Part shown: positions 6,845 to 24,646 of the stretch, piece by piece
Layout of the letters: every line of letters begins with the position of its first letter
How positions within the stretch are numbered: the stretch's first letter is position 1
Assembly (NCBI GenBank): GCA_033763455.1
Contig: JANRKO010000006.1
Coordinates: 1-64,000, forward strand
Direction of reading: 5' to 3'
DNA from: Polyangiaceae bacterium
GTDB lineage: Bacteria > Myxococcota_A > Polyangia > Polyangiales > Polyangiaceae
DNA: 64,000 nt
Notes under the pieces: model-generated
Told to the model about the DNA's origin: nothing
Database searches by the model: none
What the model saw: only the letters and a program-made list of their open reading frames with translations
Position numbers and translations under genes: made by a program

Positions 6845-7909
6845 TCAGATAGAGTAACTCAAGCGTGGCGTTACTTGACCGTGCCGTAGATCCAAAAGGA
6901 CGCTATCGCCCTGTTCAATGCCATGCTCCAGGAACTCATGCTGCGGCATTTGAACTGATATGCGATCGCCATTGGGCAACGCCACCGCAAGCTTCACGAA
7001 GCCGCCGATTCGAATCAGCCTTTCTACGCGAGCCACCTTGGCCGGCGTACCCCCTTTGACCTTGGCGAGCCGCACATCGTGTGGGCGGATGAAAGCCTCC
7101 ACGATGGAGCCCTCCGCCAGATCCACCGCTGTTGAGAGGCCTTCTTCTGCAAACAGCGCCTGCCCGCGCACCACGCGGCCCGACAGGATCGTGGCGCCTC
7201 CCAAAAACGACGCGACAAAAGCATTCGCGGGGCGTTCGTAGAGCTCGGTGGGGGCGCCCGCTTGCTCGATTTTTCCGTCACGCAAGAGCACCACGTGATC
7301 GGAAAGCTCTAACGCTTCTTCTTGATCGTGGGTAACAAGAAGGGTGGTTACTTGAGTTTGCTCATGCAAGCGGTGGAGCCATTCGCGGAGCTCCACACGA
7401 ACCTGCGCATCGAGCGCGCCGAATGGCTCATCCAGCAGAAGCACTTTGGGCCGAATCGCAAGTGCACGTGCGAGTGCAATACGCTGACGCTGACCACCTG
7501 AAAGTTGATCGGGCAGACGCTTCTCATAGCCTGATAGCTGCACCAGGCTGAGCAACTCAGCCACGCGCTCCTGGATCTGTGCCTTTTGGGCTTTCCGCAC
7601 CGTGAGGCCAAACGCAATGTTCTCCGCGACCGTCATGTGGCGAAAAAGTGCGTAATTCTGGAACACGAAGCCCACATTGCGTTGGCGCACGGGAACGTTG
7701 GTGATGTCCACGCCGTTGATGCACACCGCACCCGCGTCTGGCACTTCCAGGCCTGCCACCAGCCGCAGTAGGGTAGATTTTCCAGAACCTGACGGACCGA
7801 GGAGGGACGTGATGCGATGCTCTGGACAGTTGAACGAGATTTCATCGACCCCCACCACTTCGCGGCGACCGCCGAAACGTTTGGTGAGGTTCTGGACTGT
7901 GACACTCAT
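6845..7909 (-). CDS. cysA: Sulfate/thiosulfate ABC transporter ATP-binding protein
   Basis: GPSGSGKS, LSGGQRQR, LLLDEPF and a TOBE tail; in operon with cysW, cysT and sbp. Confidence 0.95.
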   Translation of the reverse strand: MSVTVQNLTKRFGGRREVVGVDEISFNCPEHRITSLLGPSGSGKSTLLRLVAGLEVPDAGAVCINGVDITNVPVRQRNVGFVFQNYALFRHMTVAENIAFGLTVRKAQKAQIQERVAELLSLVQLSGYEKRLPDQLSGGQRQRIALARALAIRPKVLLLDEPFGALDAQVRVELREWLHRLHEQTQVTTLLVTHDQEEALELSDHVVLLRDGKIEQAGAPTELYERPANAFVASFLGGATILSGRVVRGQALFAEEGLSTAVDLAEGSIVEAFIRPHDVRLAKVKGGTPAKVARVERLIRIGGFVKLAVALPNGDRISVQMPQHEFLEHGIEQGDSVLLDLRHGQVTPRLSYSI

Positions 7910-8808
7910 GTTGCAGCTCCTTTTATCACGTCACCGGTTCTTCGGCGTGCCGCTTGCCACTCTACCCAGTGTTTGGCAACAAGCGAGACCAGCGCAAGCA
8001 GGCCGAGCAGCGACGCTACGGCAAATGCTGAGGCGAATTGGTACTCACCGTAGAGAATTTCCACGTGCAGCGGCAAAGTGTTCGTTTCACCGCGAATATG
8101 GCCGGAGACGACGCTTACCGCCCCGAACTCACCCATGGCGCGTGCATTGGTCAAGATGACGCCATAAAGCACACCCCACTTCACCTTCGGCAAGGTAATG
8201 CGAAAGAAAACCGTCCAGCCGCGGGCGCCCAGCGTAAGCGCCGCTTCCTCTTCGTCGCTCCCCTGTGCCTGCATCACGGCCAATACCTCGCGAGCTACTA
8301 GCGGGAACGTCACGAAGGTCGTCACCAGCACCACGCCCGGAACTGCGAAAATGATCTTGATGTCAGCCGCGCTAAGCAGCGGTGCAAACCACCCGTTCGC
8401 GCCGAAAAGCAGCACAAACATGAGCCCCGCCACGACAGGGGAGACACTAAACGGCAGATCGATCAGCGTGGTGATCACGCTTTTTCCCGGGAAATCGTAC
8501 TTTGAAAGGAGCCAGGCGGCTGCCATACCAAACGCGAGGTTCAGGGGAATGCTGATGCCTGCCGCCAACAGGCTCAAGCGCACCGCCGAAAGCGTTTCCG
8601 CATCGGAAATAGCGGCGAGGTAAACGCCGAAGCCTTCCTTCAGCGCAGAAGAAAAGACGATCAGAAGAGGCAGCCCAAGAAAGACTGCTACGAACGCGAG
8701 TGCCAGGAAGATGAGTACTCGCCGCGCCAGCACCGGGTCTGAAAGTGCGGGCCTTTCGTGGTGGTGCAGCCCCTCGGCGCTCGTGCGTTTCACTGCGACG
8801 CCTGTCAT
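7906..8808 (-). CDS. cysW: Sulfate ABC transporter permease CysW
   Basis: IDLPFSVSPVVAGL and NARAMGEFGAVSVVSGHIRGETNTLPLHVE. Confidence 0.95.
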   Translation of the reverse strand: MTGVAVKRTSAEGLHHHERPALSDPVLARRVLIFLALAFVAVFLGLPLLIVFSSALKEGFGVYLAAISDAETLSAVRLSLLAAGISIPLNLAFGMAAAWLLSKYDFPGKSVITTLIDLPFSVSPVVAGLMFVLLFGANGWFAPLLSAADIKIIFAVPGVVLVTTFVTFPLVAREVLAVMQAQGSDEEEAALTLGARGWTVFFRITLPKVKWGVLYGVILTNARAMGEFGAVSVVSGHIRGETNTLPLHVEILYGEYQFASAFAVASLLGLLALVSLVAKHWVEWQAARRRTGDVIKGAAT

Positions 8809-9629
8809 CGCGCACCAGTTCTTCGACGTTGAAGGAGATTGAGCGCGAAGAGGCTGAGAAAAGAAACACCCAGCATCACGCAGGCGATCACGGTTGCGCC
8901 CGCATAGTCATATTGCTCAAGCTTGGTGATGATAAGAAGCGGAGCGATCTCGGTCTTCATCGGCATATTGCCTGAGATAAACACCACTGAGCCGTATTCG
9001 CCCACGCCGCGGGCGAAGGCGAGTGTGAAGCCGGTCACAACCGCGGGAAAGAGTTGCGGAAGCAGGACTTTCACGAAGGTTTGCAAGCGAGTTGCACCGA
9101 GTACTGCGGCGGCTTCTTCGAGGCTAGCTTCCAGATCCTCCAGCACAGGTTGGACGGTGCGTACCACGAAAGGGATCCCGACGAACACGAGTGCGAGAAA
9201 GATTCCGAACGGGGTGAACGCGGCCTTCATTCCCAGCTTAAGGAGCGGCGCCCCCAGCCAGCCACTAGGAGCATAAATAGCGGTTAACGCTATTCCAGCT
9301 ACAGCCGTGGGCAGCGCGAAGGGCAAATCCACCATGGCATCCACCAATTTGCGCCCCGGAAAAGGGTACCTTACGAGCACCCACGCCAAGAGAACTCCAA
9401 ACACGGCATTGCACGTCGCCGCCGCGAACGAGGTACCGAAGCTTAGCTGGTAGGCGGCCATTACGCGGGGTTCGGTGGCGATCCGAAAGAACTCACCCAG
9501 CCCCACGCCACTCGCCCGGAGAATCAGCGCCGATAAGGGCAAGAGTAGCAACAGGCTCATGTAAAAAACGACGAAGCCAAGGCTGGGCCCAAACCCTGGC
9601 AAGACTCCGCGTTTGGTAAACAGGCGCAT
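8805..9629 (-). CDS. cysT: Sulfate ABC transporter permease CysT
   Basis: VDLPFALPTAVAGIAL and FARGVGEYGSVVFISGNMPMKTEI. Confidence 0.95.
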   Translation of the reverse strand: MRLFTKRGVLPGFGPSLGFVVFYMSLLLLLPLSALILRASGVGLGEFFRIATEPRVMAAYQLSFGTSFAAATCNAVFGVLLAWVLVRYPFPGRKLVDAMVDLPFALPTAVAGIALTAIYAPSGWLGAPLLKLGMKAAFTPFGIFLALVFVGIPFVVRTVQPVLEDLEASLEEAAAVLGATRLQTFVKVLLPQLFPAVVTGFTLAFARGVGEYGSVVFISGNMPMKTEIAPLLIITKLEQYDYAGATVIACVMLGVSFLSLFALNLLQRRRTGAR

Positions 9630-9631
9630 GG

Positions 9632-23544: not shown

Positions 23545-23775
23545 ATGATGGTCAAGAAGCTTTCCGCAGTTGGCAACAGTCTGGGCCTCATCATCGATCG
23601 GCCGGTTCTGGACCTGCTCGACATCACCAAGGACACCCCGCTTGAGGTCAAGACCGACGGTGAGGCGCTGATTATTCGTCCCGTGAAGAAGTTGCCGTTG
23701 ATGGACCGCGCGCTCGCCGCTGCGGACCGGTTGATGGAGGCGCACGAAGAGACGTATCGGAAGCTCGCCAGGTGA
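23545..23775 (+). CDS. AbrB/MazE/SpoVT-family antitoxin
   Basis: KKLSAVGNSLGLIIDRPVLDLL...LEV.TDG..LIIRP, with C-terminal H.ETYRKLA typical of Doc-partner antitoxins. Confidence 0.88.
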   Translation: MMVKKLSAVGNSLGLIIDRPVLDLLDITKDTPLEVKTDGEALIIRPVKKLPLMDRALAAADRLMEAHEETYRKLAR

Positions 23776-23861
23776 GTGATGCGTCGGTCGAGATCGAGTT
23801 CCTCACGTTCGAGGTTGTGCTTGCGCTCCACCAGCGTCAGCTCGATCGTTTTGGCGGATAG
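23772..23861 (+). pseudogene. doc: Truncated Doc/Fic-family toxin (N-terminal 29 codons)
   Basis: GTGA overlap with the antitoxin; reads VSDASVEIEFLTFEVVLALHQRQLDRFGG*, a Doc-type FL..E.VL.LH..Q..RFGG start; no Fic motif follows. Confidence 0.75.
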
Positions 23862-24420
23862 CAAAGTCGAAGCCGTAGTAGTCTGGAAAGCCAGCTAATT
23901 GCCCCGGGCATCGTGCAGTGCGTCCAGGATTTCCTTCACGCGCGATCGATAGGTGCGGTCACGGACGAACAATGATGGGTCCTTGCGCAGCTGCAAGGTG
24001 AGTGGGCTTCCGCGCCTCAGCGTCGTGTGTAGAACAGGCAGCTTTGCCGAGTCGAGCGTTTGAGTGGGCTTATCTCATGGTGGCAGTCAGCTTAGAACGC
24101 GAGGAGCGATAGATCCTTGGTTTGGATGCGGTCATGTCGCCTGCGGGTCACGCCTTCCAATCTTGACGCCTAGGACGATGAAAGAAGCTTGCGAGCGAGG
24201 TTGGCGCTAGCACCTGCTCGATATCTAGCGGTGAGGTGAAGCGGGTGCAGCAACGCTGCGGGTAGTTAGCATGCCAACAATTGCCATGCTAAGTACCAGC
24301 GTGACGCCAGCGTGCCTCCACGGTACGGTGTGAGAAGATGCGGCCAACCACCAAAGGAGCGGCTCTCCAGGCGAAGGGTGAGCCCACCCCGGTAAACTCG
24401 ACGAGTGTGCGGGGCAGCGG

Positions 24421-24646
24421 TTAGATGCTGTATTCCGAGCTGGGTTCGCCGTGCGGATTCGGATTTCCCCCAAATCATTCAGAACGAGAGCATCCGGTGC
24501 TGCTTGCGGCTCGAGTGTAGCACCAGCGTTACCGATGGCGGACAGAACGCTTCGTCGAGGGGCCCCTCGGAAGTGTGAATGGCACGCATGACTTGAATGG
24601 CTTCGGATTCAAGATATTCCAAGTGATCCAGATGGCGGCGTAACAT
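24421..24646 (-). pseudogene. cysD/cysN: Collapsed relic of the sulfate adenylyltransferase operon (cysD N-terminus plus cysN pieces)
   Basis: Collinear fragments: MLRRHLDHLEYLESEAIQVMR (CysD start), AIHTSEGPLDEAFCPPSVTLVL (CysN domain II), TLEPQAAPDALVLNDLGEIRIRTANP (CysN domain III, second frame) and SSEYSI* (third frame). Confidence 0.75.

Follow-up and report, generated by a model that had tools for sequence, protein, structure and literature searches.

Why should the ATPase of a sulfate importer and a transcription regulator, two proteins of unrelated fold, end in the same three residues? The question is raised by 64,000 nucleotides from a Polyangiaceae bacterium (positions 1-64000 of contig C6; the genome comprises 6.56 Mb at 59% G+C), a stretch that we refer to in its entirety as the window. 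Within it, the ATPase CysA and an Rrf2-family regulator both close with Tyr-Ser-Ile (YSI) followed by a stop codon. The initial annotation of the window had listed three such endings on sulfur proteins and had suggested that they converge on a common docking site, the cysteine synthase CysK. Two of the three, those of CysA and Rrf2, are true protein ends; the third lies in a frame of 17 codons that has no start. The CysA and Rrf2 tails are conserved among relatives, predicted by structure models to be unstructured, similar to known CysK ligands, found together across genomes and linked genomically to cysK. These features suggest that both tails are probably anchors for the CysK active site that O-acetylserine displaces.

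Matching tails on CysA and an Rrf2 regulator

The cysA gene (6845-7909, minus strand) encodes a 354-residue ATPase of the ATP-binding cassette (ABC) type, with an ABC domain followed by a C-terminal TOBE regulatory domain (Pfam ABC_tran and TOBE_2). Its identity follows from a score of 354.7 bits against the NCBIfam model for sulfate ABC ATPases, TIGR00968 (cut-off 342.75), and from the adjacent minus-strand genes cysW (7906-8808) and cysT (8805-9629), both Pfam BPD_transp_1, and sbp, which encodes the sulfate-binding protein (9632-10753, Pfam SBP_bac_11). The protein ends in ...TPRLSYSI, with the codons TAC TCT ATC TGA at the close, and the SYSI tail with its stop codon occupies 6845-6859 on the minus strand. 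In the best 120 CysA relatives, a terminal Ile is present in 110 and the pattern [YF]-x-I, that is Tyr or Phe followed by any residue and Ile, in 109; the commonest single tail is DYVI, found in 41 of the 120. When CysA-like proteins were clustered at 50% identity, 11 of the 99 full-length-sized representatives had the tail, and it is therefore a trait of a subset of lineages. CysA of E. coli K-12 ends in ...LALAQSA without such a tail, which may explain why a link between CysA and CysK went unnoticed. The initial annotation knew of no described CysK-CysA interaction, and our literature searches, which left most subscription journals outside their coverage, likewise found none in bacteria. The best relative of CysA with a solved structure is 1Z47. 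In the AlphaFold2 model of the CysA monomer, which has a mean predicted local distance difference test (pLDDT) score of 87.4, the last strand spans residues 345-348 and residues 352-354 have pLDDT values below 50.

The second tail belongs to an Rrf2-family transcription regulator of 152 amino acids encoded at 22816-23274 on the plus strand (Pfam Rrf2, 118.6 bits). Alignment with orthologs shows that translation begins with the ATG at 22816, rather than with the TTG at 22774. The regulator scores 113 bits against TIGR00738, the model of the Rrf2 superfamily (cut-off 73), and is not an equivalog of the sulfur regulator CymR, with 59.4 bits against NF047409 where the cut-off is 195. Its reading frame ends in ...ALSSYSI, written TAC AGC ATT TAG at 23263-23274, and the SYSI tail with its stop codon covers 23260-23274. 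As the initial annotation had pointed out, the serine codons of the two tails differ, being TCT in CysA and AGC in Rrf2. Among the best 120 Rrf2 relatives, 118 end in [YF]-x-I, with Tyr at the third-last position in 113 and Phe in 5, and the exact ending RYSI occurs in 76. An alignment of 23 relatives shows Y150 and I152 to be invariant and S151 nearly so, and the approximately 15 residues ahead of the tail vary freely. In the AlphaFold2 monomer, the tail closes a disordered stretch of 13 residues, 140-152, all with pLDDT below 50.

Two further features of the regulator deserve mention. Four of its cysteines, C91, C100, C103 and C109, are invariant in the alignment, with the spacing C-x8-C-x2-C-x5-C. 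Regulators of the IscR type bind an iron-sulfur (Fe-S) cluster through cysteines at the corresponding position, and to our knowledge CymR lacks cysteines there. As judged from the sequence, the four cysteines may hold an Fe-S cluster and so add a second input to the regulator. In addition, a near-palindrome, TACTCTATAGACTA (12238-12251), lies in the sulfate operon's promoter region. The window has no other such site; the palindrome is hit on both strands by overlapping matches, with 0.16 matches expected by chance, and its core is also found upstream of Rrf2 or sbp at three related loci (L023, L028 and L051) and just past Rrf2 at a fourth (L052). We infer that this palindrome is a candidate operator of the Rrf2 regulator.

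How unusual is the shared ending? We used a gene set from a crude codon-usage caller that comprises 5230 genes and covers 87% of the genome. Just two of the 5230 predicted proteins end in YSI, namely CysA and Rrf2, compared to approximately 0.16 expected from the position-specific composition of the last three positions. The looser pattern [YF]-x-I ends 10 of the 5230 proteins and Ile of any context ends 97. The remaining proteins with the looser pattern include aldolase-like, kinase-like and peptidase-like proteins, labels that come from reading the sequences and not from a family scan, and we saw no sulfur link among them.

The two tails also tend to occur together. Scanning species genomes with the Rrf2 alignment yielded 80 loci, labeled Polyangiaceae, Binataceae, Planctomycetales, Omnitrophota, Geobacteraceae, Gemmatimonadales, Vicinamibacterales, Cytophagia and others, and at most of these the Rrf2 gene adjoins sbp-cysT-cysW-cysA. 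Both Rrf2 and cysA are present at 32 of the loci, which span several phyla. Both tails occur at 19 of these and neither at 11, with the Rrf2 tail alone at two and the CysA tail alone at none. Within these loci, just one further open reading frame (ORF) out of 2004 of at least 150 amino acids ends in [YFW]-x-I. The paired tails are not the same in every clade, examples being RYSI with DYVI, SFAI with VYQI, NYQI with EFEI and FYTI with DYQI. Because the sequences differ between clades, selection appears to act on the motif rather than to preserve one inherited sequence. A tree built on the core of the regulator requires a minimum of three changes in the Rrf2 tail and of five in the CysA tail, and both tails were lost together in three separate clades. 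Closer to the genome studied here, 6 of 40 relatives have this Rrf2, all six with the ending RYSI, and all six have a tailed CysA.

What the motif resembles is a ligand of cysteine synthase. The peptide DYVI, identical to the commonest CysA tail, is the C-terminus of an Arabidopsis serine acetyltransferase; it competes with O-acetylserine on the Leishmania cysteine synthase with an inhibition constant of 4 uM, and its half-maximal inhibitory concentration on the Arabidopsis enzyme is 8 uM (PMC3388911). In a series of pentapeptides the tightest binders had Tyr at the third-last position; on Salmonella CysK, MNYDI measured 0.22 uM versus 11.8 uM for the native YGDGI, and in the Haemophilus enzyme Phe144 and Phe233 are the residues on which the peptide Tyr stacks (PMC9547175). 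Terminal Ile motifs are also borne by partners other than the serine acetyltransferase CysE, specifically CdiA-CT (GYGI), EGL-9 and CymR (PMC12895370, PMC4961446). Like the members of this CysK-docking class, the CysA and Rrf2 tails end in Ile with its carboxylate free, retain their motif independently of the preceding sequence and resemble peptides for which binding to CysK has been measured.

CysK and serine acetyltransferase in the tailed genomes

Docking of this kind calls for a receptor, and the initial annotation had named the absence of CysK as grounds to abandon the idea. The genome encodes two proteins above the cut-off of the CysK equivalog model TIGR01139, with 396 and 385 bits versus 350.95. 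CysK1, encoded at C8:49965-50945, retains the TSGNT loop, Q170-F171 and the GAGF motif at 254, all of which are invariant in 44 sequences, and so the genome has a CysK-type enzyme with the peptide-binding residues. By alignment offsets, an approximate mapping, these residues fall where Phe144 and Phe233 are found in the Haemophilus chain. Other fold-type II pyridoxal phosphate (PLP) enzymes in the genome are a CysM-like protein and a CBS-like protein. CysK1 has the long loop typical of CysK, whereas its CysM-like paralog is without the long loop and the GAGF motif.

The CysM-like gene and the second CysK (C19:184923-185954) lie together at C19:184923-188795, in a cluster that also encodes a 250-residue protein, an 89-residue carrier ending in Gly-Gly and a 149-residue protein. 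Judged by gene order, sizes and the Gly-Gly end only, this cluster resembles the mycobacterial CysO/CysM/Mec+ route to cysteine, in which case the 250-residue protein would be a ThiF/MoeB-like activator and the 149-residue protein a JAMM/Mec+-like protease.

At some related loci, cysK is located directly within the operon: after cysA at L039 and after cysW at L069 and L102. At L077, cysK lies between two tailed Rrf2 genes. Serine acetyltransferase (SAT), the CysE enzyme that produces O-acetylserine, also accompanies the tails. Taking a match to TIGR01172 with E of 1e-25 or better as CysE and the equivalog cut-off as CysK, 18 of the 19 genomes with both tails have CysE and 18 of 19 have CysK, and both genomes with the Rrf2 tail alone have CysE and CysK. 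Among the 11 genomes with neither tail, CysE is found in two and CysK in four. These counts rest on incomplete metagenome-assembled genomes, and seven of the 11 no-tail genomes are Gemmatimonadales or Gemmatimonadota. No SAT at E 1e-25 or better was found in nine of the 11 (those of loci L056, L058, L063, L065, L074, L080, L084, L092 and L100), three of which have CysK over its cut-off; in these nine genomes cysteine may be formed by a route that bypasses O-acetylserine, or the SAT may be divergent.

The initial annotation had drawn on the well-known Ile tail of CysE, a background that does not carry over to this organism: its best CysE-like protein ends in ...GKAKE, and neither of its CysE-like proteins ends in Ile. 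Across the genomes examined the best CysE-like match has no terminal Ile, with the exceptions of G018, which is tailed, and G028, which is not. In one set of four CysE, none ends in Ile; in a set of 23 CysE-like frames four do, comprising three with G-x-G-I that adjoin cysK in tailed genomes and one with ...EYNI in a no-tail genome. The G-x-G-I protein is the sole CysE-like match in one tailed genome and an additional match in two. With the best CysE-like protein mostly untailed, the CysK site would be free for other partners in most genomes. A paper from 2026 describes some CysK enzymes that keep the peptide site though their own CysE is untailed, and asks what their partners are (PMC12895370).

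A third ending and the remainder of the window

The third ending, SEYSI followed by a stop codon, is at 24421-24435 on the minus strand, in a nonconserved intergenic stretch, and we place it outside the system. The frame around it is open for 17 codons between two stops (stop-FGGNPNPHGEPSSEYSI-stop) and contains no ATG, GTG or TTG. Given that the frame has no start codon, SEYSI is not the C-terminus of a protein. The initial annotation had attached this ending to a relic of cysN, and thereby to sulfate activation. The relic, 24479-24679 on the minus strand, is in a different frame from SEYSI and overlaps the end of dabA; no NCBIfam model matched it, and its best match among the proteins of this genome is CysD rather than CysN, over 10 of 18 residues with an E value of 0.49. 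A tailed CysN or CysD was considered as a third member of the system and rejected on account of the startless 17-codon frame, the lack of a family match and a CysD similarity that is both weak and out of frame. The CysD, CysN/C-like and CysH-like proteins that the genome does encode end in ...EGYF, ...SLYAL and ...VSKN, without a tail, and the sulfate-activation arm of the earlier proposal is therefore unsupported.

Might the ending instead be the last trace of a tailed sulfur gene that has decayed? There are 12 YSI-stops in the six frames of the whole genome, of which three are in the window, compared to 0.12 expected per window; the third is 1.1 kb from the Rrf2 gene and beside the weak CysD-like fragment, all of which speaks for a decayed gene. 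Nevertheless, in addition to the short, startless frame and the untailed CysD, CysN/C-like and CysH-like proteins, a blastx search of 23776-24660 against the proteins of this genome and the ORFs of the 80 related loci gave no match. The stretch is not conserved in three genomes of the same genus, a DNA search of 40 relatives returned short unrelated matches only, and set against the cysA and Rrf2 3' ends it shows words at chance level only and is a copy of neither. A search of the 80 loci for a third tailed family was also negative. We therefore consider decay of a tailed gene to be very unlikely; the third ending, statistically odd and unexplained as it is, is probably due to chance. The same noncoding stretch includes 45 bp (24311-24355) that are repeated at C56:9539-9583 with 87% identity. 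Between Rrf2 and this stretch, 23545-23861 encodes an AbrB/MazE-like antitoxin of 76 amino acids (doc_partner model, E 2.4e-8, under the cut-off) followed by a 29-codon start of a would-be toxin gene. To the right of this remnant, up to 24653, there is no long ORF, and the DNA is not conserved in genomes of the same genus.

The sulfate-uptake operon includes one more gene, for an O/P-type anion porin (10760-12226, minus strand, Pfam Porin_O_P). Within the family the distribution of the sulfate ABC importer is patchy, a close CysA (E of 1e-90 or better) being present in only 12 of the 40 related genomes and an Rrf2 of this type in only six. Approximately 10 kb separate the operon from the Rrf2 gene (12478-22676) and encode ExbB, ExbD, two TonB-C proteins and a TonB-dependent receptor, surrounded by four proteins with no match in Pfam or NCBIfam. 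One of these four, encoded at 21630-22676, has only hypothetical relatives in the ESM Atlas, mostly from Myxococcota. The TonB/ExbBD cluster may import a different source of sulfur and be controlled by the same Rrf2 regulator. On the far side of Rrf2, 24654-29786 contains a pump pair for inorganic carbon, dabA (825 amino acids, Pfam DabA 861 bits) and dabB, which encodes a proton-antiporter-like subunit, accompanied by a divergent LysR-type regulator. At 799-2989 there are two divergent paralogous genes for GDSL-type lipases or acylhydrolases, each of which ends in ...LLR.

A proposed common partner for the two tails

The part of the original proposal that comparative evidence and the literature strongly support is the convergence of the CysA and Rrf2 tails on a CysK-docking motif, for which conservation, likeness to ligands, co-occurrence, linkage to cysK and the two CysK enzymes all speak; the part on CysN is unsupported. 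A scheme can be proposed by analogy with CymR-CysK and with plant O-acetylserine (thiol)lyase (OASTL) bound to the STAS domain of a sulfate transporter, and it is from these analogies that we infer that CysK binds the tails, that O-acetylserine displaces them and which way each effect runs. With ample sulfur, O-acetylserine would be low and the CysK site free. Free CysK would hold the Rrf2 tail and so stabilize the repressor on an operator ahead of the sulfate-uptake operon, and would also hold the tail on the TOBE regulatory domain of CysA and damp the pump. When sulfur, in the form of sulfide, runs short, O-acetylserine would accumulate and displace the tails, such that transcription and transport would both be released.

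A number of observations weigh against this scheme. The CysA tail is short, extending about six residues past the last strand in the AlphaFold2 model, and on that model it might not extend far enough to enter a buried CysK site unless the TOBE domain docks as well. The pairing of the tails is imperfect, given that two of the six relatives that have CysA and not this Rrf2 nevertheless carry the CysA tail, and that two of the 32 loci have an Rrf2 tail without a CysA tail. Independent paired changes number one on the well-supported branches of the tree and three on all branches, and with only about three independent changes the co-occurrence cannot reach statistical significance. With regard to CysK itself, four of the 11 no-tail genomes exceed the CysK cut-off, and the enzyme is therefore not sufficient for tails; one no-tail genome in that comparison (G030, locus L084) is flagged unpublished. 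The three genomes in which a G-x-G-I CysE adjoins cysK are tailed (two with both tails, one with the Rrf2 tail only), indicating that the CysK site is not always free. Lastly, two CysK-type enzymes are present in this genome, and either could be the partner.

Could the tails share a partner that is not CysK? One possibility is a protein that recognizes free hydrophobic C-termini, for instance an unfoldase adaptor or a protease of the PDZ-domain or tail-specific kind, which would subject both proteins to joint degradation; another is a PLP enzyme of the same fold as CysK, for instance the CysM-like or CBS-like protein. In favor are the conservation and co-occurrence of the tails, the presence of both of these PLP enzymes in the genome and the CysK found in some no-tail genomes, as described above. 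However, the motif is the optimum measured for CysK, a terminal Ile carboxylate with Tyr at the third-last position, up to and including DYVI itself; the gene found inside the operons is cysK and no protease; and the tails accompany CysE, the maker of the competing ligand. The CysM-like protein of this genome is without the long loop and GAGF motif, and CysM-type enzymes have an approximately 100- to 400-fold lower affinity than CysK for two out of three peptides that were assayed with both (PMC9547175). A partner other than CysK is therefore unlikely. An explanation that dispenses with a common partner altogether would make each tail a structural or cis element of its own family, packing on the TOBE domain or the Rrf2 dimer, and would ascribe the pairing to joint inheritance or transfer of an operon. 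The small number of independent changes, the adjacency of the Rrf2 and transporter genes at most loci and the shortness of the CysA tail are all compatible with that explanation, but it leaves two unrelated folds sharing a three-residue ending that only 10 of 5230 proteins have, and both tails being lost jointly in three separate clades. Moreover, the linker ahead of the Rrf2 tail is variable and disordered, which is ill-suited to a packing role. We regard family-specific elements as unlikely, and docking of both tails into CysK continues to be the explanation that we favor.

The closest precedent for the regulator is CymR. In Bacillus subtilis and Staphylococcus aureus, CysK stabilizes the CymR repressor on DNA (PMC4961446, PMC12895370). 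CymR is, like the regulator described here, an Rrf2-family protein with a C-terminal Ile motif, and it represses sulfur genes. Unlike CymR, the present regulator is below the CymR cut-off, has four invariant cysteines, is encoded beside a sulfate ABC operon and occurs in Myxococcota and several other phyla. O-acetylserine reportedly releases CymR from CysK, a result attributed to Tanous in 2008. For the regulator, the proposal amounts to a variation on the CymR-CysK principle, set in another Rrf2 subfamily and outside the phyla of CymR. The mode of anchoring would be as in the cysteine synthase complex, where the terminal Ile carboxylate of the CysE tail anchors in the CysK site and competes with O-acetylserine, and residues upstream of it strengthen binding. 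In contrast to that complex, the tail is here on a transporter ATPase and a regulator and not on CysE, the best CysE-like protein having no Ile tail in this genome and, with one exception, in the tailed genomes examined. That a protein other than CysE can enter the CysK site is illustrated by the CdiA-CT toxin of E. coli UPEC536, whose tail, G-Y-G-I, has Tyr at the third-last position and Ile at the last, but the toxin uses CysK as an activating factor and not in a sulfur-homeostasis circuit.

For CysA, the only parallel is functional, and it comes from plants and an unrelated transporter; we did not find this class of partner in print. In plants, uptake by the sulfate transporter SULTR1;2 is lowered by cysteine synthase bound to the transporter's cytoplasmic regulatory domain, a logic that matches what is proposed for CysA. 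The plant protein is an SLC26/SulP transporter with a STAS domain, as opposed to an ABC importer with a TOBE domain, and we found no indication that the plant interaction uses a C-terminal Ile tail. Among ABC importers, a metabolic signal is known to be taken up by the C-terminal domain of TOBE-type ATPases, and transport stops, as with MalK and EIIA-Glc and in the trans-inhibition of MetN and ModC. In those cases a small ligand or EIIA-Glc binds on the surface of the domain, and no terminal tail is known to enter the active site of an enzyme.

Viewed across lineages, CysK could tentatively be seen, in Myxococcota, Binatia-like bacteria, Planctomycetota, Omnitrophota and Geobacteraceae, as a hub that senses O-acetylserine and at once clamps, through one motif, CysA at the post-translational level and an Fe-S-type Rrf2 repressor of the same operon at the level of transcription, in place of a CysE-CysK complex that these bacteria mostly lack, a generalization that we put somewhat short of probable. 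The known partners of the CysK active site are CysE, CymR, the toxin of contact-dependent inhibition and EGL-9, and this locus adds two candidates, CysA and Rrf2. If the proposal is correct, these bacteria would gate the entry of sulfate by the logic of plant SULTR1;2, with an ABC importer placed under an enzyme that reports an intermediate of its own pathway, and CysK would be the first metabolic enzyme whose active site directly gates an ABC transporter.

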